Source: an uncultured virus (IMG/VR IMGVR_UViG_3300042356_000546)
Lineage: Duplodnaviria > Heunggongvirae > Uroviricota > Caudoviricetes
Direction: 5' to 3' (one strand)
Length of the DNA stretch: 64,000 nucleotides
Virus record (IMG/VR): IMGVR_UViG_3300042356_000546
How positions within the stretch are numbered: the first letter of the stretch is position 1; every line of letters begins with the position of its first letter. Shown here one piece after another: positions 4,274-49,786 of the stretch. Below the pieces are notes generated by a model. That model was not told the origin of the DNA, did not search any database, and saw nothing but the letters and a program-made list of their open reading frames with translations. Both the position numbers and the translations under genes were made by a program.

Positions 4274-5132
4274 TCTTTAGATACTGGCAGTATTCTTTAA
4301 TGCCCTGCCAGGGTTCGTAGAATAAATCAACATCGACTCCCGCAAGCGCCAGCTTGCTAGTATCAGCTTTGGTATCCAGTTGATACTGTGCTTTGAGATC
4401 ATCGGGCATGGGGATAGAGCATTTGACACCTGTACCACATTCATTGATCACAATGTTGGCAATACTGTCAAAGTCCACACTGGCTCCTGTGCCTAGATCA
4501 TAGATGCCGGGTGTGTAGTTTTTCACAAAGTGATAGATGGTACTGGCCACATCCTCTACCCATATGAAGTCTCTACGATAGTTCATGCTGTTTTCAAATA
4601 TGTTGATCTTGCCGTCTGTTTGTATTTGATTGTACCAATGCATTATGGTACTGGCCATACGACCCTTGTGATACTCGTTGGGTCCGTAGACGTTGAACAA
4701 TCTCAATACCACTCCTGTAATCTCTTGTTCACTGACCTGTTTGCTGAAAGCATATTGATTGAGTGGTCCTGTACCATTGCCATAGACTGCGGCTGAACTG
4801 GTAAAGATAAAAGGGATGGCATGTTCCAAACAAAAGGCATTCCACATACGAGTTGACAGCACATTACTTTTATAGATAGATGGCCAGTTGCGTTCCAGTG
4901 TGCTAGAGTTGGCGCCAATGTGAATCACTGCGTCAATGTCTTTGGGATTGAATGTGGTCTTTTCAAATGTAGAGTGCGGATGTATGCTTTTGAACCGCTT
5001 GCCCACAAGATTGCGATACTGCGTTTCATTTAGCAGATCATCAAACAAGACAACATCAGAGATACCCTGCTTGTTAAGATAGCCCAACATCACGCTGCCA
5101 ATAAAGCCGCCGGCACCTGTTAATACAATCAT
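4257..5132 (-). CDS. hldD: ADP-L-glycero-D-manno-heptose 6-epimerase
   Basis: [50 protein letters not shown]. Confidence 0.88.
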
Positions 5133-5890
5133 AGTATTTCTTCCATCGTAGGAGCATAACATCCAACATGCTGAACTGTGATAGCGGCAGCTTGGTTGGC
5201 AAAGTCCATGGCTCTTTTTATATCTTTGGTATGTAGGTAGTTGTAGACAAGTGCGGCAAGAAAGGTATCTCCTGCGCCTGTAACATCTACAACTTCTACT
5301 CTTGGTGCTTTAGAACTATACTTGTGATGAACAGCATCCGCACCTTTGGCACCACGTGTAACAATTAACCCACTGCACTCGCTTTTGATTTTACTGTATT
5401 CCAATTCATTGATCTTTACCCATGCACCTTGCATACGTTCTAGATCTATTTTCTTAGTATCGATAAAGATAGGAATACTCAGTGCGATCAGTTCTTCTAT
5501 AAGTTCGTAGCTAACTGTTCCTTTATTGTAATCACTGACTACAACAGCATCATAAACATTGGGAATATCTGTTTCGAATGTCAACGGATCAGATACAATG
5601 TCATTGTCAATACGCACAATCTGTTGTTGACTACGTTGATCGATTAATCTAGTCTTTGTACTTGTTTCGCCGAAAAGATAGTTTACTTCACAGCCCAATG
5701 CCTCTAGATTGTTAAACACATTACCTGCCATACCATCACTTTCTTCTGCATATGTAGGCACAAATACAGGCACAGGTGCTTCTGGGCTTAGCCTATCAAT
5801 AGTCCCGTACTGGTAAATGTCTTTACAGTTATCGCCTATGAGCAATATCTTGAATTTTGTTTGTGGTTGAGTAGTTGCCAAGTCTGTCAT
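5129..5890 (-). CDS. Heptose-7-phosphate kinase (HldE/RfaE domain I, PfkB family)
   Basis: RLSPEAPVPV, SDYNKG, VDVTGAGDTFLA. Confidence 0.88.
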   Translation of the reverse strand: MTDLATTQPQTKFKILLIGDNCKDIYQYGTIDRLSPEAPVPVFVPTYAEESDGMAGNVFNNLEALGCEVNYLFGETSTKTRLIDQRSQQQIVRIDNDIVSDPLTFETDIPNVYDAVVVSDYNKGTVSYELIEELIALSIPIFIDTKKIDLERMQGAWVKINELEYSKIKSECSGLIVTRGAKGADAVHHKYSSKAPRVEVVDVTGAGDTFLAALVYNYLHTKDIKRAMDFANQAAAITVQHVGCYAPTMEEIL

Positions 5891-21847: not shown

Positions 21848-21854
21848 GATTATC

Positions 21855-21932
<78 letters not shown>

Positions 21933-21951
21933 AACATTAATAGTACAGCAG

Positions 21952-22028
21952 CAGTCCTTAGCTCAGTTGGATAGAGCAACAGCCTTCTAAGCTGTAGGCC
22001 ACTGGTTCGAATCCAGTAGGACTGGCCA
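21952..22028 (+). tRNA. tRNA-Arg (TCT)
   Basis: CAGTCCT/AGGACTG acceptor stem, ACAGC-CTTCTAA-GCTGT, TTCGAAT, CCA. Confidence 0.95.
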
Positions 22029-22054
22029 ACAACGTTGCAGCAGCATCGAGACTG

Positions 22055-22139
22055 AGGACCGTGGTGAAATAGGTAGACACAAGAGACTTAAAATCTCTCG
22101 CAGCAATGCATACCGGTTCGATTCCGGTCGGTCCTACCA
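22055..22139 (+). tRNA. tRNA-Leu (TAA)
   Basis: AGGACCG/CGGTCCT acceptor stem, AGAGA-CTTAAAA-TCTCT, long variable arm, CCA. Confidence 0.95.
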
Positions 22140-26290: not shown

Positions 26291-26353
26291 AGACAAGCCG
26301 ATTCGCTCCCGGGGCGTCTTTTGAGGGTGTTGTAGAAATACAACACCTTTTTT
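26291..26353 (+). terminator. 3'-UTR hairpin (loop ATTCGCTCC) followed by an intrinsic terminator
   Basis: CCG-ATTCGCTCC-CGG, then GGTGTTGTA-GAAA-TACAACACC and a T-run. Confidence 0.75.
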
Positions 26354-31486: not shown

Positions 31487-31546
31487 ATTGGTTGACAGTT
31501 TGGCAGTTTGGCGCTATAATAAACACATACACACAAAGGAGCGAAG

Positions 31547-31840
31547 ATGAAGTTTACACAAACAGATTGGACAGAGGCAAACGGCACTAGCCTGCAGGGA
31601 TATGTAACCGCTTACTACCATGAACTGGTAGAAGTGTTTGGCCAGCCCGAAGGCGGCGGCGACAAGACCACAGTGGAGTGGTGTTTGGAATTTGAAGATG
31701 GCACAGTGGCCACAATATACGATTGGAAAGAATACGAAACCCCAATGGGCCAGTATCGTTGGCACATCGGTGGCAAGAGCAAGCAAGCAGTTCATGCAGT
31801 AACTTCAACTTTCAAGGATCATCAATATGACACACATTGA
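31547..31840 (+). CDS. Early hypothetical protein (GTSLQGY...ATIYDWK)
   Basis: Promoter 31492 and GGAGCGAA RBS. Confidence 0.75.
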   Translation: MKFTQTDWTEANGTSLQGYVTAYYHELVEVFGQPEGGGDKTTVEWCLEFEDGTVATIYDWKEYETPMGQYRWHIGGKSKQAVHAVTSTFKDHQYDTH

Positions 31841-32009
31841 ACGATTGGCTAACGAGATTGCAGTGCTGAGTAATGACAGCCTCTCTAAGTTGGCTGCTGA
31901 GTTGGTTAAAGAGTATCCTACTCGTGCAACTACATTTGAGTTCAGTCTTAGCGTTGAGATCCAGGACGCTACGATTACGCAAGACCCCTGGAAATTTGTT
32001 AATCTTTAA
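31827..32009 (+). CDS. Early hypothetical protein
   Basis: Overlaps the previous gene. Confidence 0.5.
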   Translation: MTHIERLANEIAVLSNDSLSKLAAELVKEYPTRATTFEFSLSVEIQDATITQDPWKFVNL

Positions 32010-32018
32010 GGAGCCGAC

Positions 32019-32633
32019 ATGCCAAATTGGTGCAACAACACACTGACACTCACCCACGAAGACCCAGCAATGATCCTTCGTGCTAAAGAAGCACTTGATC
32101 GTGGAGAGTTCCTCAATGAGTTCATTCCGGTGCCAACGGATCTGCAGATCGTTGCAGGATCGTTAGGTGACGGTGACGAGCAGAAAGAATTGGAACGCAA
32201 GACTGCTGAGAATCGCGAGAAGTATGGTTACGGCAACTGGTATGACTTCTGCGTAGGTGAATGGGGCACCAAGTGGGATGTAGGTGGCGATGGTCAGAGT
32301 GATATCCACCCTGATGGTAAGATGCTACACACATCGTTCGACTCAGCGTGGAGCCCTCCAGTCGCTGCCTATGACAAGTTGGTGGAGTTGGGCTTTGGTG
32401 TCAACGCCATGTATTACGAAGGTGGTATGGCCTATGCTGGCGCCTATGATGAGCATGGTGATCAAGAGATCAATCTCGAAGGCATGAGTGCCGACGACAT
32501 TGAGCGTGATCATCCTGAACTGGACGAAGCATTTGCTATCTCAGAAAGCATTCGTGAATACGAAGCAGAGCAAGAGGAAGAGCTTACTGAGTGGATTAAG
32601 GATGGCGTTGCAGCCAATGAGGGAACAAAATGA
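32019..32633 (+). CDS. DUF1281/YubB ferredoxin-like domain protein
   Basis: MPNWCNN, WYDFC..WGTKWD, FDSAWSPP. Confidence 0.75.
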   Translation: MPNWCNNTLTLTHEDPAMILRAKEALDRGEFLNEFIPVPTDLQIVAGSLGDGDEQKELERKTAENREKYGYGNWYDFCVGEWGTKWDVGGDGQSDIHPDGKMLHTSFDSAWSPPVAAYDKLVELGFGVNAMYYEGGMAYAGAYDEHGDQEINLEGMSADDIERDHPELDEAFAISESIREYEAEQEEELTEWIKDGVAANEGTK

Positions 32634-32824
32634 CAAGGAAATATGAATTTAAATTCACAATCGAGTGTGCCAGCGATGGCAGACCCGATATGGATCGAGT
32701 CGAACACATGATCGACTTGAACATGCAGGATCTGGTCTTTGACGATGAGTTCATCGCCGCCTTAGACGAGAAGGAAAGCGTCAGTATTCAAGTTGTTCCG
32801 CAATTTGGTAAACCAAACAGTTGA
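32630..32824 (+). CDS. Early hypothetical protein
   Basis: ATGA overlap. Confidence 0.55.
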   Translation: MTRKYEFKFTIECASDGRPDMDRVEHMIDLNMQDLVFDDEFIAALDEKESVSIQVVPQFGKPNS

Positions 32825-32904
32825 CCAATTCGAATATTGATGCTATACTAATAACATGCTGAATTGGTTGGCATGATTTTTACACACACAGAAGGAAGTT
32901 AAAA

Positions 32905-33210
32905 ATGAGTACCGATAAGAAATTTGCAGTAGCAGGTGTTTCAACCCTCGAAGGCAAGACCAAATTGCGCTTCGCTAACGATACCATGCGTATCAAGATC
33001 CTGGCAAAGAACGGCCACACTGACGTTGAGTTGGTTGAGCTGCCAGTAGAGATGACTAAGGCAGAAGCTGTACAGCACCTTAAGTCTATCCAGTTCGGCA
33101 TAGGCAATGCTGCTATCCAAGCTGCTGTTGCCTATGCAGAGAAGAAAAACCCAGCCCCCCGGGCTGCGGTCAAAGCCCCTGTCGCGAAGACAGCGGCTGT
33201 TGTTGCCTAA
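32905..33210 (+). CDS. Conserved small basic protein with Ala/Lys-rich tail
   Basis: FAVAGVS...RFAND...KILAKNGHTD; AAGGAA RBS. Confidence 0.75.
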   Translation: MSTDKKFAVAGVSTLEGKTKLRFANDTMRIKILAKNGHTDVELVELPVEMTKAEAVQHLKSIQFGIGNAAIQAAVAYAEKKNPAPRAAVKAPVAKTAAVVA

Positions 33211-33280
33211 TACCGATTCGCTCCCGGTATAGAGGCAACTTTGGCATAACCCTGCTAGGTGTAGGGTTATGCTTTTTTTT
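33210..33280 (+). terminator. 3'-UTR hairpin (loop ATTCGCTCC) followed by an intrinsic terminator
   Basis: ATACCG-ATTCGCTCC-CGGTAT, then GCATAACCCT...AGGGTTATGC and T8. Confidence 0.8.
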
Positions 33281-33340
33281 GGTTGACAATTTGGACGTTG
33301 TGCGTTATAATTACAGCTTACACACACAAAAGGACACACA

Positions 33341-33592
33341 ATGTTTACAAATTGCATAGCCTACGCAAAGCTAGTTTACAACAAAAAATTAAAAGCATAT
33401 AAAGTACAGTTTGCATTTAATGTACACAAAAAAATGGTGGGGGACGAGATTAAGTATATATTCCCTACACAAGCAAAATGCAACTATGTTAGTGGGGACT
33501 TACTTGCAGACAACTTGCAAAACGAGGTGCAACGCACTGTGGCTTCTGCGCAACAAAGTTTGCGTACTACAAACATTGTATTTGTTGACTAA
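33341..33592 (+). CDS. Early protein 1 of the TC/CC-depleted island
   Basis: Promoter 33283, AAGGA RBS. Confidence 0.7.
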   Translation: MFTNCIAYAKLVYNKKLKAYKVQFAFNVHKKMVGDEIKYIFPTQAKCNYVSGDLLADNLQNEVQRTVASAQQSLRTTNIVFVD

Positions 33593-33671
33593 ACTGTAGG
33601 GTTATACATAGCGCACTTGACATTTTGGACAAAGTGCGCTATAATAACAACATAGCAACAAAGGAAACACA

Positions 33672-33815
33672 ATGCAAAATACAAAAAGCAAATTAGACAG
33701 TTTAATGTTACAGTTACAAACAGTGCTAGAAGAAGCAGAACTAGACGAACATGTTGCAATACAAAACGCATTTAATGCGTTAGCTTGTGCGCTAGACGAC
33801 ACAATTATACAATAA
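33672..33815 (+). CDS. Early protein 2 of the TC/CC-depleted island (47 aa)
   Basis: Promoter 33617, AAGGA RBS; MQNTKSKLDSLMLQLQTVLEEAELDEHVAIQNAFNALACALDDTIIQ*. Confidence 0.7.
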   Translation: MQNTKSKLDSLMLQLQTVLEEAELDEHVAIQNAFNALACALDDTIIQ

Positions 33816-33907
33816 CACTACAGCGCATAGGGTTATTGCGCACACACTTGACATTTTGGACAAGGTGTGCTATAATACATTTTTAAACAGCATTAGGAGC
33901 GAATACT

Positions 33908-34285
33908 ATGCAAGCAACACAATTTGAAGTTAGCGACAAGCTGACACTGGCAACTACAGACACTAGCGAAGACAGCATTAGCACAACATACGACTGCAAC
34001 ATAGAAGTGCAACTAGCAGGCGACAGCATATGGGACTGCGAGATTGAGGCAGTTACAGTTACAAGCGTACACATACACGAGCAATGGTGGGACGAATTGG
34101 ACGGCGACAGTAGCATACACATTACAGTGTGCTATAACGTAGACGGCGATGCAGAGTACGAGGGCAGCTGGAGACTGTATACAGACAGCGGCTTTGTAGA
34201 TGCGATTAGCACACTGCTAGGTACAGACGTTATGTTTACAGAGCAGGGTATGCAAGACGACGGCTATGCGAGCATGGAGCTGTAA
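33908..34285 (+). CDS. Early protein 3 of the TC/CC-depleted island (acidic, no proline)
   Basis: Promoter 33848, GGAGCGAAT RBS; YTDSGF...FTEQGMQ. Confidence 0.75.
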   Translation: MQATQFEVSDKLTLATTDTSEDSISTTYDCNIEVQLAGDSIWDCEIEAVTVTSVHIHEQWWDELDGDSSIHITVCYNVDGDAEYEGSWRLYTDSGFVDAISTLLGTDVMFTEQGMQDDGYASMEL

Positions 34286-34356
34286 TACTACAGCACACAC
34301 TTGACATTTTGGACAGTGTGTGCTATAATTAACACTTAACAACAAAGGAGCAGTAA

Positions 34357-34512
34357 ATGAAAGAAGCAATACTTGCAAAGCTAGCGGAAGTAGAAGCTAT
34401 GCTGTTAGAGGCAAGCTGTGACGGGGAGCAACTAGCAGAGCTAGAATGCTTTGGGGATATGGAAAGTCCGCTTAACATGCTAGTGCAAGCGGTTGACTAC
34501 TACGTAGACTAA
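34357..34512 (+). CDS. Early protein 4 of the TC/CC-depleted island (51 aa, acidic)
   Basis: Promoter 34301, AAGGAG RBS; MKEAILAKLAEVEAMLLEASCDGEQLAELECFGDMESPLNMLVQAVDYYVD*. Confidence 0.7.
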   Translation: MKEAILAKLAEVEAMLLEASCDGEQLAELECFGDMESPLNMLVQAVDYYVD

Positions 34513-34606
34513 CCTGTAGGGGCGTAGGCCCCGCTGCCCAACGGCGGTTGACACCTAGCCAAAAGCATGTTATAATACATTTACACTAACACATTAGGAG
34601 CAGACA

Positions 34607-34897
34607 ATGGATATCAAACAGATCAATCAAGCGATCATGTTCAGTGACTTGACCAACGACGAGTTGATGTCAGTGATCGATGCAGTTAAGTGGAAGCGGG
34701 CAACTATCGCCAAACTGACCAAAGCCAGCTTGCGAGTAGGCGATAACGTCAACTTCACATCTAGCAAGTTAGGTCGGAACGTGACAGGTGTTGTCACTAA
34801 GATCGCTATCAAGTTCGTTACCGTCAAGACTGCGCAGGGTGCATGGCGAGTACCTGCGAACATGTTAACCAAAATCGAAGACCGAGAATTTGCGTAA
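34607..34897 (+). CDS. Early protein, SH3/KOW-like C-terminus
   Basis: LRVGDNVNF...GVVTKI...WRVPANML. Confidence 0.7.
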   Translation: MDIKQINQAIMFSDLTNDELMSVIDAVKWKRATIAKLTKASLRVGDNVNFTSSKLGRNVTGVVTKIAIKFVTVKTAQGAWRVPANMLTKIEDREFA

Positions 34898-34905
34898 ATA
34901 AACAC

Positions 34906-35232
34906 ATGAGCAAATTAGAATACTATTGCAGGCCCTTGGTGGCCTTTGATGCACATAACAAAGATCATCGTCGCTATTACGCAGAGTTCGTGGAACACAG
35001 CAGTTGGGGCCGTTGCCCAGTCCGCTTCATCTGTCCAGAAGACAATGGCGGTGACTTGATCTCCATGATCAAGAACAATCTCATCCAATACTATATCGAC
35101 CGTGAGTTTGGTGGCGGAAAGTTGGCCACTGAGCGATCAAAGAGTCTTGACGAACAGGCCGGCGTTCTCTACAAGAAAGCCGGTGCTCTGCGCAAAGAAG
35201 CAGCCGCATTGACCAAACCCAGGAGAAAATGA
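34906..35232 (+). CDS. Hypothetical protein
   Basis: TAAATA upstream; RPLVAFD...WGRCPVRF. Confidence 0.65.
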   Translation: MSKLEYYCRPLVAFDAHNKDHRRYYAEFVEHSSWGRCPVRFICPEDNGGDLISMIKNNLIQYYIDREFGGGKLATERSKSLDEQAGVLYKKAGALRKEAAALTKPRRK

Positions 35233-35615
35233 TGGAATGGCTAGACTTCGTGTTGGGCGCGGCCTTGGGAGGCTTTTTGGGCTTCAAGGTAGCCGAACAC
35301 ATCCATGTCACTATGTTCAAAGACATCCTGATCAAACTCAAGGTCAAAGACTCAGACATGCGCAACATGATGCAGGATCTGCAGAAGGATCTGCCTGAAG
35401 ACCACGAGGATGCAATGCCCCGTATAGAAGTCCGGGTTGAGAAGGTGAATGATCAACTGTATGTGTACCGTTTGGATACCATGGAGTTCCTATGTCAAGG
35501 AGCAAACCGTGAAGCCGTTCTAGCCTGCTTGAGTGATCGCTTCCACAAGGACTTTACCATTGTACTATCAGAAGAGCATGGTGCGCAATTCCTAAAGGAA
35601 AGCCCTAGAACCTAA
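35229..35615 (+). CDS. Membrane-anchored hypothetical protein
   Basis: N-terminal hydrophobic helix. Confidence 0.6.
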   Translation: MMEWLDFVLGAALGGFLGFKVAEHIHVTMFKDILIKLKVKDSDMRNMMQDLQKDLPEDHEDAMPRIEVRVEKVNDQLYVYRLDTMEFLCQGANREAVLACLSDRFHKDFTIVLSEEHGAQFLKESPRT

Positions 35616-35661
35616 AGGGCATTTGGTTGACAGATTGGCAGTTCAGTGTTATAATACACAC

Positions 35662-35892
35662 ATGAACAAAACAAATGACATTCTACAATGGACGGGTGCT
35701 GTAGCCATAGTGCTAGGGCACATTCTCAATGCTGTGGGTCCTGCGGCATATCCCTACAATATTATTGTGTTCGCTGTGGGAACAGTACTGTTCCTAACCT
35801 GGGCCTTCCGTGTCAAGAACCGCCCACAACTGATGGTTAATGTGATTTCATTAGCCATAGGCATTGTAGGGTTATTGAAAGCTGTTGGTTGA
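35662..35892 (+). CDS. Small multi-pass membrane protein
   Basis: Three hydrophobic segments; promoter 35627. Confidence 0.65.
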   Translation: MNKTNDILQWTGAVAIVLGHILNAVGPAAYPYNIIVFAVGTVLFLTWAFRVKNRPQLMVNVISLAIGIVGLLKAVG

Positions 35893-35949
35893 CAGATTGG
35901 ACGAATGGCGCTATAATTAATGCTTACACACACTAAACAGGAGCTGAAT

Positions 35950-36303
35950 ATGAATGCAATCGCAACAGTGATCACAGAGCAGGCAGTACAGGACGCAACC
36001 AACGAAGCTGGTATGCAGGCTCGTACAGCCGCTAAGGCATTCCTGCAGAAGCATGGCGATCGTGATGCTTGTGGCTTTGCTTGGGTGGATGTCTACGGTG
36101 TCCGTTCTAACTCCAAGCTGGGCAAGTGGTTGCAGGCCGCTGGCTTCCGCAAATCCTACACAGGCAGTCTCCAACTTTGGAATCCAAGCCAAGCAGGTGT
36201 GCAGAGCATCAGCGTTCTGGAAGCAGGTGCTGAGGCCTACGCAGAGGTGCTGAAGACCAAGTTGGGCTTGGACAAGGTCTACGCTGGAAGCAGGTTGGAT
36301 TGA
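35950..36303 (+). CDS. Early hypothetical protein (CGFAWV motif)
   Basis: Promoter 35889 and GGAG RBS. Confidence 0.75.
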   Translation: MNAIATVITEQAVQDATNEAGMQARTAAKAFLQKHGDRDACGFAWVDVYGVRSNSKLGKWLQAAGFRKSYTGSLQLWNPSQAGVQSISVLEAGAEAYAEVLKTKLGLDKVYAGSRLD

Positions 36304-36623
36304 TGGAAGCCCTCCGAGAAACAACCGGGGGGCAGTTCCCCCCGCACATATACCTACTAGATGGAAACAAACTGGTAGCATACATAAAGACCGGAACATC
36401 GGAGCCTTACTATTTCAAGAATGGTATCAAGGGTTTCGACAAGCGAGGCAGGAAGTTTGAGAGTATAACTCCTAACCCGTTTAAGGTCAAGACACCAAGT
36501 AATCTAATCACTATCAAAGGCTCCAATGGCAAAGAATACACCGTCGATCCAGAAGCAAAAACCTGTACCTGTCCAGGGTTCCAATTTCGAGGTGCCTGCA
36601 AACACCTGGCAAGCCATAGTTGA
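36300..36623 (+). CDS. SWIM zinc-finger protein
   Basis: CTCPGFQFRGACKH. Confidence 0.75.
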   Translation: MMEALRETTGGQFPPHIYLLDGNKLVAYIKTGTSEPYYFKNGIKGFDKRGRKFESITPNPFKVKTPSNLITIKGSNGKEYTVDPEAKTCTCPGFQFRGACKHLASHS

Positions 36624-36641
36624 CAGAATGCTGTCAGGCAA

Positions 36642-36872
36642 ATGAAGCGGTTTACCTTTTGGCGTAATGCCATCGTATCGGAACTCTACGTGGTTGAATG
36701 TGAAACAGAAGCACAGGCCCGCGAGATGTTAAACGACGGCCTAGTGGAAGTCCACTCCGAAGAGTGGGTGGATTGGGCAACTAGGGACTACGAGCTAGAG
36801 CACGAAGAGATCATAGACCCTTTGTACCGTATGGTTAAAGACTATGAATCGGTTGACAGTTTGGGTGAATGA
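36642..36872 (+). CDS. Early hypothetical protein
   Basis: ORF track. Confidence 0.55.
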   Translation: MKRFTFWRNAIVSELYVVECETEAQAREMLNDGLVEVHSEEWVDWATRDYELEHEEIIDPLYRMVKDYESVDSLGE

Positions 36873-36908
36873 GACTATAATTAACACATAGCAACAAAGG
36901 AGCTGGCA

Positions 36909-41139: not shown

Positions 41140-41188
41140 TCGCTGCCACTCTGTGAGTGGTGATCATTGACATGTGATATATACTCAC

Positions 41189-41764
41189 ATGTCTATCACA
41201 CTCATACAAGATCTACTCAAACCCAACCAATTCAGCTATGTCTGCCAACGCCTCACTGATCCTGCTATAGATTGGTTCTATCTGCCCTTTACTGCTAACC
41301 CTGATGATATCAGTGGGGCGGATCCCCAGTATCAGGGATCGTTTAGTCATTTGATCTACAAGGACAGTCAAAATATCAGTCCATTATGGGATCCCAGTCT
41401 GCTCATACTATTGGCTGCTCTGGATCATCAAGATCAACAATTGGATTCAGTACTAAGAGTGCGCCTGGGACTATGCACACGCACACCCTGGAGTGTGGAA
41501 CACACACCGCATATAGATCATCCTGTACTGAATCATCGCACAGGCATATTCTATCCTGCGACCAGTGATGGTGACACTGTCATATTTGATCAGCGCAAGG
41601 AACAGCCTAAAAGGGAAATGTACACAGAATGGCACAGACAAAAACCCACGGCCAATCTATGGATGGACTTTCCCGGCAGGCATTTTCACTCATCAACCAC
41701 ACCCGTTGCACACGAAAGCAGATATGTGTTAACCATTAACTACACAGTTAAAGAATCCAAATAG
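41189..41764 (+). CDS. 2OG-Fe(II) oxygenase-like protein
   Basis: HTPHID, DGDTVIF, HFHSS, RYVLTINY. Confidence 0.7.
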   Translation: MSITLIQDLLKPNQFSYVCQRLTDPAIDWFYLPFTANPDDISGADPQYQGSFSHLIYKDSQNISPLWDPSLLILLAALDHQDQQLDSVLRVRLGLCTRTPWSVEHTPHIDHPVLNHRTGIFYPATSDGDTVIFDQRKEQPKREMYTEWHRQKPTANLWMDFPGRHFHSSTTPVAHESRYVLTINYTVKESK

Positions 41765-48844: not shown

Positions 48845-49786
48845 TTATACACTAATTGCTAGGTGCTTTGCAACACCAAAGTTGTATTTCCACTCTCGTT
48901 GTTTAGTGTGATACAAGACTGCTCCGATAGAACTAGATGGATCTCCTGGATTAGGTAAACTCCACCTGTACTTAAATGCAGGTTCCACAAATCGTTTATT
49001 AGCATCTGAATTCATAGCACAACCGCCCATATAAACTAGACAGTCAGTGTTGACTAATTTCTTAGCTTCTAGCATAACCATACGGATTTGATCTTCAAAC
49101 ACTCGTTGAACTGCGGCAGCAATATCGTAACGGTCTTGTTCATTTCCAATGTCATGCGGCCAATCGAGGATGCCCTTGTGCATGTTCTTACCAGAGATTA
49201 ATAGTCCGCTCATGTATTTGTGAACATCATGTTTATAACGATGTGGGTCGCCCTTCTTAGCCATTTGTTGCAATAGATATTCGTCTTGTATTGGAGTCAT
49301 TCCTAACAAGTTAGTAAATGCGCTATAGAATAGCCCTAGACTATTAGGATAACTTCTGCTCCACACTTTGCGCATTTCTCCGTGTAGGCCTTCCCATATG
49401 GTAGCACATTCAAATTCACCTATGGCGTCGAGTACCACAATAGCACAATGATTAAAAGGACTGGTATAGTAGCCTGCGGCTGCATGACTACCATGATGCG
49501 GTGTATAAGTGATCGGAGCATAATGTTGCGCTTTCATATATCTACGTGGAAGTACCTTCATATCTAAGGCACGATGCCACTGTCCTGCGTATGCCTGTCT
49601 TGCTTTCTTTATCCAGGGTCGTTCGTACCAAAAGATACGATCTGGTGCTCCAAGATGCAGGGCATCGGTAATTATTTTGCTGTCTAATTCATCCGAAGAA
49701 CCCACTTGATTGGACCACAGACTGCCGTCCTTGAATACAGCAAGACTACTTCCATGATTAAGGGCATTTACCCCCCACATGATCAT
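48845..49786 (-). CDS. Carbamoyltransferase (NodU/CmcH) N-terminal Kae1-like domain, stand-alone
   Basis: HHGSHAAAGYYTSPF, VLDAIGE, SLGLFYS, GGCAMN, PGD; C-terminal domain absent. Confidence 0.85.
   Translation of the reverse strand: MIMWGVNALNHGSSLAVFKDGSLWSNQVGSSDELDSKIITDALHLGAPDRIFWYERPWIKKARQAYAGQWHRALDMKVLPRRYMKAQHYAPITYTPHHGSHAAAGYYTSPFNHCAIVVLDAIGEFECATIWEGLHGEMRKVWSRSYPNSLGLFYSAFTNLLGMTPIQDEYLLQQMAKKGDPHRYKHDVHKYMSGLLISGKNMHKGILDWPHDIGNEQDRYDIAAAVQRVFEDQIRMVMLEAKKLVNTDCLVYMGGCAMNSDANKRFVEPAFKYRWSLPNPGDPSSSIGAVLYHTKQREWKYNFGVAKHLAISV

Follow-up and report, generated by a model that had tools for sequence, protein, structure and literature searches.

The 64,000 nucleotides (nt) analyzed here (hereafter the window) belong to the uncultured virus IMGVR_UViG_3300042356_000546, and carry on their + strand a block of four small early genes from which the dinucleotides TC and CC (together YC, with Y a pyrimidine) have almost disappeared. 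YC was counted on the + strand, and a YC-free run is referred to as a desert. The block sits in a hyperplastic early region, within a long + strand series of small open reading frames (ORFs), each preceded by a near-consensus TTGACA-17-TATAAT promoter (31 near-consensus promoters in the window, and 11 perfect ones in 7 kb). The unit upstream ends at an intrinsic terminator (33243..33280, +; GCATAACCCT / AGGGTTATGC plus a T run, the 10-nt arms being 100% complementary), whose 5' arm holds the last YC ahead of the depleted zone (33250-33251, +) and whose loop (hairpin 33243-33273) is the upstream limit of the desert. The four promoters of the block each match the sigma70-type consensus at 12/12 positions (starts at 33283, 33617, 33848, and 34301). 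P1 (33283..33311, +) is of the ordinary "ggTTGACA" class without an inverted repeat and precedes gene 1 (33341..33592, +; 83 amino acids, aa; family A2), the leakiest member of the block with a YC observed/expected ratio (obs/exp) of 0.26 and YC at 33360, 33462-33464 (a Phe-Pro pair) and 33545. From there on extends the strict YC-free core (33546..34466, +), in which no TC or CC starts. It takes in P2 (33617-33645), lying in an 11-nt perfect inverted repeat (33608..33645, +; ATAGCGCACTT / AAGTGCGCTAT) that resembles the promoter-stem-loop (PeSL) elements of other phages, then gene 2 (33672..33815, +), which encodes an acidic 47-aa protein with 0 Pro and has 0 YC, and a relic hairpin (33810..33838, +; CAATAACACTA / TAGGGTTATTG, 91% complementary with a single mismatch). 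P3 (33848-33876), in the inverted repeat GCACAC / GTGTGC (33840..33876, +), is followed by gene 3 (33908..34285, +; ribosome-binding site, RBS, GGAGCGAA at 33896), encoding an acidic, Pro-free 125-aa protein of alignment family A1 with 0 YC where 30.5 are expected. Last come P4 (34301-34329), in a 13-nt inverted repeat (34289..34329, +; TACAGCACACACT / AGTGTGTGCTATA), and gene 4 (34357..34512, +), encoding an acidic 51-aa protein, with its sole YC at 34467-34468 (a Ser-Pro pair) and with which the depleted zone ends. A YC-rich spacer with the hairpin GGGGC-GTAG-GCCCC (34513..34547, +) begins one base after the stop codon, and the promoter after the block (34548) has YC in its own spacer.

The + strand YC starts at 33545 and 34467 are separated by a gap of 922 nt, and only seven YC starts occur within 33253-34512 (33360, 33462, 33463, 33464, 33545, 34467, and 34468). 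In the 920-nt core both TC and CC number 0, and all 172 C follow A or G. Since GA (63) and GG (40) are common on the same + strand, only one strand is affected. C still makes up 18.7% of the core, with neither CT (obs/exp 1.07) nor TT (obs/exp 1.33) depleted. Under a mononucleotide model, the chance of zero YC in the core is ~2e-39, and the runner-up YC-free runs of the 353,123-bp genome measure 134 nt on the same strand and 160 nt on the opposite strand, which together rule out chance or base composition as the cause. Across 48 degenerate dinucleotide classes scanned genome-wide, the longest gap of any other class is 263 nt. At the level of single ORFs (n = 463), YC obs/exp has its mode at ~0.9, with three desert genes at 0.00, 0.20, and 0.26 and the next lowest value at 0.40; the 47-aa gene was unscored because a spurious antisense ORF stood in its place in the scoring set. 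Flanking early genes use YC normally, with 8.3-9.2 YC per 100 nt (window average ~10 per 100 nt) and an NYC/NYT codon ratio of 231/182 (N, any base). Avoidance of a CRISPR protospacer-adjacent motif or of a restriction-type site was ruled out by reasoning, one strand alone being depleted.

The same rule holds in related phages. We compared 94 loci from IMG/VR, 14 encoding relatives of the 125-aa protein and 80 encoding relatives of its 204-aa upstream neighbor (some phages, or near-identical versions of them, are counted more than once). On the + strand, 37/94 loci have a YC-free run of 400 nt or more and 23 one of 900 nt or more, with a maximum of 1341 nt, and on the - strand no locus (0/94) reached 400 nt (longest run 133 nt). 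Duplicate removal left 37 distinct depleted islands, totaling 30,306 nt with 89 internal YC, and holding 85 ORFs in 23 families. The family of gene 3 is a near-universal member of these YC-free blocks (26 islands), and the remaining desert families vary in presence and order between loci, i.e., they form a shuffled gene set. Homologs of the core desert families keep the bias rather than showing normal TC/CC usage, with YC obs/exp spread continuously from 0 to ~0.7 across phages, and homologs that are inverted in their locus are YC-depleted on their own coding strand. A whole-genome scan of four cultured jumbo phage relatives revealed no such desert, and these genomes are also missing the 125-aa family; their longest YC-free runs (149-311 nt) are no longer than those of other dinucleotide classes in these AT-rich genomes.

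Codon usage in the 83 distinct desert ORFs (7397 codons) indicates how the depletion is maintained. NRC/NRT codons (R, purine) number 1658/790 and NYC/NYT codons 47/1112, so that C at the third position of NRY codons stands at 68% in desert ORFs vs. 53% in the flanks. Serine is encoded by AGY rather than TCN (367/6), and proline makes up 0.24% of residues vs. 3.45% in flanking early genes. The rule also crosses codon boundaries, a C-initial codon being found after 32/3607 Y-ending codons vs. 906/3707 R-ending codons. Among five orthologs of the 125-aa gene, which differ pairwise at 25-38 positions, these differences created 0 YC where random placement would give 3.1-6.7, and of the T<->C differences, 90 follow R and 1 follows Y. 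Purines are still followed by C, at raised frequency, and the mean %C-%G of the core (-4.6) is the same as in flanking early genes (-5.5 and -4.5), so that the target is the dinucleotide and not C-richness. Codon bias alone is ruled out as well, since codon junctions, spacers, and internal promoters also follow the rule. Strong purifying selection thus continues to act on the block, keeping 5'-YC-3' out of its transcribed sense strand.

A purely mutational origin, in which transcription-associated C->T decay at dipyrimidines (through UV or a deaminase acting on single-stranded DNA) left a footprint without any selection, might come to mind for a lake-water phage with UV-repair genes (UvdE, DenV-like endonuclease V, HhH-GPD) and a TT obs/exp of 1.33. 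Retention of C while its 5' neighbor changes is, however, the opposite of what C->T deamination or UV would leave: C is held at 18.7% and preferred at NRY third positions (68% vs. 53%), CT is undepleted (1.07), and the substitution that spoiled the relic hairpin was C->A, not C->T. Moreover, amino-acid usage has been reshaped while the protein families are conserved, neighbors with identical consensus promoters are normal, and the 25-38 differences between orthologs never create a YC. With these codon and polymorphism data the mutational footprint is close to refuted, and we regard it as extremely unlikely. Transcription-blocking UV lesions were set aside by reasoning, as the template strand retains its dipyrimidines (seen on the + strand as 63 GA and 40 GG) and there is no avoidance of TT.

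The boundaries of the deserts coincide with those of transcription units. In the fetched loci, at least one YC lies within the 29 nt of 887/1301 near-consensus promoters outside deserts, and of 0/30 inside. For 6/21 distinct deserts, the first promoter keeps a YC in its -35 element or spacer, and the YC-free run begins before the -10 element or transcription start site. At the other end, the purge extends through intergenic spacers to the last codons, and the deserts stop 18-61 nt past the last stop codon, with YC again present in the next promoter or 5' untranslated region (5'UTR). Two families that are YC-normal elsewhere turn YC-free inside a block (obs/exp 0.95 for the window ORF at 35623-35892; in-block values of 0.0 for L049 7752-7964 and 0.21 for L068 10895-11128), which makes the rule a property of the transcription block and not of particular proteins. 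Such a block-bound constraint can be sensed only by something directional, i.e., the RNA or a single DNA strand in the course of transcription. Among 69 homologs with partial depletion, the residual YC are spaced at random (fraction at <=15 nt 0.311 observed, 0.319 random) and placed evenly along genes. Overall, it is very probable that transcript-directed selection against YC acts on the block.

These results sit well with most of what a sequence-only reading of the window had put forward. The YC-free + strand core with its 172 C all after purines, the seven YC steps in 33253-34512 with five of them at the only two proline codons, and the free use of TC and CC by flanking genes (8.3-9.2 per 100 nt) all hold, as do the AGY-only serines of the core (AGY/TCN 16/0 in genes 2-4) and the Pro-free 47- and 125-aa proteins. 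Runs of similar length, which would have spoken against it if common, do not occur elsewhere in the genome (next longest 134 and 160 nt in 353 kb). Its proposal of a strand-specific rule that includes intergenic DNA, exceeds codon bias, and reflects strong selection is supported by the codon, promoter, and ortholog data. It had further pointed to a lack of GA and GG at the start of gene 1, which is real (positions 33333-33436, covering the 5'UTR and gene start, have no GA or GG and almost no YC, and are CA- and A-rich) but statistically unexceptional, the GA/GG gap of 103 from 33333 being the second longest in the window (maximum 109).

The purge has also left its mark on the hairpins between cassettes. 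The mismatch of the relic hairpin is a C->A change (CCC->CAC) through which the expected AACCCTA arm has lost its two CC steps; the inter-cassette hairpin CCCTAC...GTAGGG is intact outside the block (33244-33272) and degraded to its relic form inside. Inverted repeats of 6-13 nt, perfect or nearly so, surround each of P2-P4, and the remaining 28 near-consensus promoters of the window have no repeat exceeding 7 nt. Repeat-embedded block promoters also occur in the relatives L007, L010, L018, L050, L062, and L087. The repeats at internal promoters covary between cassettes and phages (GCGCAC/GTGCGC, CACACAC/GTGTGTG; in L018 GCACACTTGCAT/ATGCAAGTGTGC), and their stems use alternating purine-pyrimidine words alone, which are the only words YC-free on both arms. 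Outside the block, the RBS word of gene 3 recurs, standing before seven early genes in all (+ strand; 22774, 24437, 26424, 30547, 31538, 33896, and 37866), and its exact complement TTCGCTCC occupies the loops of two small hairpins (CCG-ATTCGCTC-CGG) at 33217-33224 and 26302-26309 (+), the former directly upstream of the desert.

Selection for unstructured mRNA, or for an RBS that is always exposed, would offer one transcript-level explanation, as YC-free RNA cannot pair perfectly with GGAG-type sequences. Consistent with this, YC-free RNA cannot hold the complement of the early RBS GGAGCGAA, and that complement is found in hairpin loops just outside the block (33217, 26302). However, the RNA of the desert is as structured as GC-matched flanks (observed-minus-predicted minimum free energy, MFE, of 0.003 kcal per 120-nt window), and more structured than mononucleotide shuffles of itself (MFE -25.1 vs. 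-21.9 +/- 1.5), so that low RNA structure is ruled out as the cause. Hairpins are conserved within the block, and avoiding anti-RBS pairing needs no removal of every YC. We thus consider RBS exposure or weak structure a very improbable explanation.

Parts of the block are present as contigs in 3/4 RNA libraries (X19, X20, and X22). These were kept out of the evidence on expression, as contigs reveal neither abundance nor transcript ends nor strand and could derive from carried-over DNA. In two runs the contigs join 33833 to 36876, skipping 3042 nt with both ends at promoter modules, and other RNA-library contigs join 31542 to 35948. Such junctions point to natural variants that have lost or exchanged the cassettes lying between two promoter-stem-loops.

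The products of the block gave few clues of their own. Of the 310 codons in the four genes, 2 encode Pro (one in the Phe-Pro pair of gene 1, one in the Ser-Pro pair of gene 4), and three of the four proteins (47, 51, and 125 aa) are acidic. As this acidic, Pro-poor composition is partly forced by the nucleotide rule, it is no evidence for a DNA-mimic or anti-defence role. The AlphaFold2 model of the 125-aa protein is a four-stranded sheet with a helix (predicted local distance difference test 86.5, predicted template-modeling score 0.82), for which no convincing structural relative was found (Foldseek best E 0.15; VIA-align wide best Z 5.4). The same protein had no match in a PDB profile search, Pfam, PHROGs, or the ESM Atlas, the 83-aa family A2 had no PDB sequence match, and none of the four window proteins matched Pfam or PHROGs. 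A predicted complex of E. coli Rho with the 125-aa family scored 0.00, which speaks neither for nor against binding. In public metagenome proteins the 125-aa family comprises 6317 clusters (90% identity), none of them named. Tblastn with the 125-aa protein returned no match in the phage collection, five cultured jumbo phages likewise gave none, and at the DNA level no relatives of the window were found in that collection, tRNA genes being the sole similarity; a tRNA cluster at ~21849-22129 gave megablast matches to phage tRNA-Met, tRNA-Arg, and tRNA-Leu.

The genome around the block (353,123 bp, 98% complete by CheckV) is that of a T4-like giant myovirus which occurs in lake-water metagenomes. 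It was scanned with Pfam (315 ORFs) and PHROGs (304 ORFs), a coverage made up of ORFs of at least 60 aa plus two desert proteins and minus five very long ORFs, and for which these libraries annotate few early genes. The T4-like core is present (gp23 capsid, gp20 portal, gp32, UvsX/UvsY, a T4-type terminase, and a gp55-like late sigma), and no phage RNA polymerase was found in these scans. The capsid protein is closest (65-70% identity) to those of jumbo phages of Pseudomonas, Vibrio, Pectobacterium, Xanthomonas, and Sinorhizobium, and the phage ClpP is 59-66% identical to gamma- and beta-proteobacterial ClpP; these similarities hint, indirectly, at Pseudomonadota as the likely hosts. A TctC-like gene was uninformative on the host. 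Genes for a DenV-like endonuclease V, UvdE, and an HhH-GPD glycosylase (window 41174-41764, +; L100:10313-11338; L103:5748-6167) are accompanied by SOD and peroxiredoxin, which for a lake phage amounts to a considerable outlay on repairing UV and oxidative damage. The auxiliary genes are an unusual set and include a heme oxygenase with a ferredoxin-dependent bilin reductase, curli secretion CsgF/CsgG, DnaK, DnaJ, a ClpB-type Clp ATPase, a cold-shock protein, ribosomal protein S21, a second ClpP, and a CHASE2-adenylate/guanylate cyclase (loci L097:1575-2799, L097:4305-6026, L096:16556-18457, L102:2500-6184, L096:6704-6904, and L096:15322-15555).

A constraint sensed on one DNA strand during transcription could take two forms. 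In the first, a lesion or modification of G in template-strand 5'-GR-3', made by the phage itself (hypermodification) or by a host enzyme, would slow or block the host RNA polymerase; in the second, a nuclease, deaminase, or DarT-type ADP-ribosyltransferase would attack YC on the displaced coding strand. Either would account for the removal of YC from a hairpin arm and for the reach to the last codon. The first form draws on the fact that 5'-GR-3' is the exact complement of YC and a known context of phage DpdA, with dPreQ0 reported at GA and GGC in CAjan (MEME motif GRH; PMC7544227) and a strict GA motif in Iggy (PMC10484667). Some genes of preQ0 type are encoded here, namely FolE (137.6 bits) and a QueD-type PTPS (52.2 bits), next to a weak QueC-like match (25.3 bits over 66 residues) and several radical-SAM proteins unassigned to QueE, and DpdA has been overlooked before in modified phages, according to the relevant part of PMC10516641. 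However, no TGT/DpdA match was detected (PF01702 0, vs. 14/14 control genomes; a divergent DpdA could escape), a CAjan DpdA query gave 0 matches at E<=1, no DpdA-type PHROG appeared among the 304 ORFs, and the 98%-complete genome has no match to C5-methyltransferase or ThyA/dCMP-hydroxymethylase families. CAjan (scanned whole) and Iggy (first 50 kb of 60.6 kb) are themselves without a YC or TC desert, their longest YC-free runs falling within 65-112 nt (CAjan 112, Iggy 77) and their minimum per-ORF YC obs/exp being 0.59 and 0.64, respectively. As for the second form, DarT2 is described as targeting TNTC in single-stranded DNA (PMC11543638) and DddA as 5'-TC specific (PMC13346905), but DarT1 as without a consensus motif (PMC11543638). 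Damage to the coding strand would leave the template-copied RNA unchanged, and a deaminase would give YC->YT and loss of C, whereas NRC is enriched and the hairpin arm went CCC->CAC. Neighbors with the same promoters are, in either form, unprotected. We therefore consider a DNA-level cause improbable. For the two enzymatic candidates of the sequence-only reading, this leaves the phage's own context-specific hypermodification with little support (no DpdA or C5-methyltransferase, and no desert in CAjan or Iggy), and splits the other, a host enzyme acting at YC or GR: its deaminase form is a poor fit, given that C persists and is even enriched behind purines, and its mRNA form is viable and corresponds to the leading explanation below. 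The sugar, carbamoyl, and oxygenase genes it had pointed to are present, but nothing ties them to DNA. They include two carbamoyltransferase-family proteins (48845-49786, -; L108:14140-15969; one with the N-terminal domain only) and at least seven 2OG-Fe(II) oxygenase-type ORFs; neither these nor the radical-SAM ORFs, of which there are at least six, could be linked to DNA modification.

At the RNA level, one candidate reader of YC is the termination factor Rho, which the sequence-only reading had not named and which is the one factor known to read 5'-YC. Its primary site has one 5'-YC pocket per monomer, Rut sites being arrangements of single-stranded YC (PMC9499579 and PMC12360218), and YC-dimer counts serve as standard rut descriptors (in the relevant part of PMC9160355). 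An operon without 5'-YC-3' would be one on which Rho cannot load, and thus would be transcribed to its end even when its RNA is naked, e.g., when infection has just begun or in lake hosts with few ribosomes. The match in specificity is exact (C preceded by U or C, with CT and TT undepleted), and (YC)N9-13(YC) pairs number 0 per kb in the core vs. 41-47 in the flanks. The rule works at operon level and tolerates YC-rich sequence past the last gene, which fits upstream loading with downstream action. The phage, with no RNA polymerase of its own found and a gp55-like late sigma, depends on the host enzyme; its likely Pseudomonadota hosts would bring Rho (the Rho_RNA_bind domain was detected in E. 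coli and Caulobacter controls), and for T4 there is the precedent that Rho added in vitro limits transcription to immediate-early RNA (PMC2988021).

The depth of the purge is nonetheless hard to reconcile with Rho. Rho needs several YC within ~80 nt, yet the purge runs ~30-fold below background, extends to the final codons of the block, too late for loading to make a difference, and has removed YC that would pair in a hairpin. Partly depleted homologs show neither avoidance of YC clusters nor a 5'-3' gradient. C is enriched after purines and the C-G skew is that of the flanks, themselves G>C; the C-poor, G-rich composition of a rut-free transcript was not found, 78-nt windows with C>G amounting to a fraction of 0.26 in the core vs. 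0.21-0.25 in the flanks. Moreover, the genes are short, each with its own promoter and a strong RBS, so that shielding by ribosomes is expected, and the four cultured jumbo relatives, CAjan, and Iggy infect Rho-bearing hosts and have no desert. An escape from Rho is thus, in our view, a serious contender but rather unlikely.

The explanation that we rank first, while holding it tentatively, is that the YC-less mRNAs evade an endoribonuclease that acts on single strands, needs a pyrimidine followed by C, and inactivates with a single hit. The RNase could be a host abortive-infection or CRISPR-ancillary HEPN-type enzyme, or the phage's own shut-off RNase. One cut would kill a message, such that every YC would carry its own cost, and the small acidic proteins would be the products still needed while the RNase is active. 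Inactivation by a single cut would lead to a near-absolute purge, to its reach to the last codon and into spacers, to the retention of C after purines, and to graded intermediates. The depletion graded by lineage (0-0.7) and absent in four cultured relatives is likewise what would be expected of a factor found in some hosts or phages only. Transcripts of the block lack YC and YC frequency is normal elsewhere, as for messages free of a target site, and the relevant parts of PMC9676260 offer a precedent for cytosine- or dinucleotide-preferring defence RNases, with SisCsx1 preferring 5'-C-C-3' and SyCsx1 being C-specific.

Several points weigh against such an RNase. Among the phage ORFs scanned (Pfam 315, PHROGs 304), there was no match to HEPN, RegB-like, or similar proteins, and RegB-, DenB-, Alc-, and Psu-like genes were likewise not found by these annotations. 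We know of no RNase of YC specificity, and that YC matches the Rho pocket exactly would be a coincidence. In L065, a YC-rich ORF (5051-5275) overlaps the stop codon of a YC-free ORF, and no promoter was found to separate the two; it looks co-transcribed, so that a cut there could open the upstream message to 3' exonucleases. The 5'UTR of L049 has a YC 3 nt before the ATG, and stem-paired YC was purged in the hairpin, which a single-strand-specific RNase would not require. Finally, neighboring early genes with equally perfect promoters are unprotected, which leaves the protection of this block alone unexplained. Taking the two RNA-level readers together, the transcripts are probably sequence-invisible to a host factor that reads 5'-YC-3', be it a widespread but undescribed YC-specific defence ribonuclease or Rho. 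The weight that remains beyond these explanations goes to causes not yet conceived.

If correct, such invisibility to either reader would amount to a protein-independent, cis-encoded immunity of messages, existing in thousands of variants (6317 clusters of the hallmark 125-aa family). The selection that maintains the purge is strong enough to strip proline from the encoded proteins. Were the YC reader an RNase, deserts could serve as a signature by which to find a novel nuclease of defence or phage shut-off, apparently a common one, and the protected messages might lead to the counter-measures they encode. Were it Rho, they would represent a new viral defeat of termination without an antiterminator, and a natural test of the in vivo YC requirement. 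Either way, the signature is easily scanned for in metagenomes and marks abundant small acidic proteins as functionally special.

Avoidance of target words is known from restriction sites (in phage genomes and first-entering DNA) and from a few RNase words. Searches of open-access full texts turned up no complete, strand-specific loss of a dinucleotide class spanning an entire transcription unit. Like restriction-site avoidance, the desert is a local loss of target words from phage DNA that is expressed early; restriction, however, concerns words of 4-8 bp on both strands, and here a dinucleotide class is lost on one strand within the bounds of a transcription unit. With DpdA-type 7-deazaguanine modification (GA/GGC in CAjan, GA in Iggy), the block shares the GR complement of the missing YC and some genes of preQ0 type (FolE, PTPS), but no DpdA was detected here and the modified phages have no strand-specific desert.

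The likeness to Rho rut sites lies in the depleted unit, which is the dinucleotide bound per Rho monomer, and in its strand and transcript specificity (following the sections cited from PMC9499579 and PMC12360218), as well as in the in vitro gating of T4-type early transcription by Rho (PMC2988021, in the part cited above). By contrast, the escapes from Rho covered in the relevant section of PMC12360218 are proteins or RNA elements (lambda N/Q, P4 Psu) and not a YC-free message, and avoidance of rut sites would call for a much shallower purge than this one, in which the C-G skew is equal to that of the flanks. In architecture, the block resembles the PeSL cassettes of T4-type phages, i.e., small early ORFs with a sigma70-type promoter and stem-loop and shuffled content and order; the accounts of these in PMC2839356 and PMC4122927 describe shuffling and are not known to describe a dinucleotide rule. 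T4-like core genes, a promoter with stem-loop between small ORFs, and modular shuffling were all found here, but stems inside the block contain only words in which purines and pyrimidines alternate (GCGCAC, CACACAC), and arms of the terminator type (CCCTAC) have decayed.

A parallel in principle comes from target-free messages, since ACA-less mRNAs survive when MazF cuts the others, the cleavage word being absent from them. T4 RegB, with GGAG, is likewise a sequence-specific endoribonuclease (as presented in the relevant part of PMC2988021), and the nearest RNase precedents in terms of specificity are the CRISPR-ancillary HEPN RNases SisCsx1 (C-C) and SyCsx1 (C) (PMC9676260, in the part cited above). 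Unlike in the MazF and RegB cases, the word missing here is a degenerate dinucleotide (2/16), and it has been purged over ~1 kb, spacers and promoters included, naturally and in many lineages.

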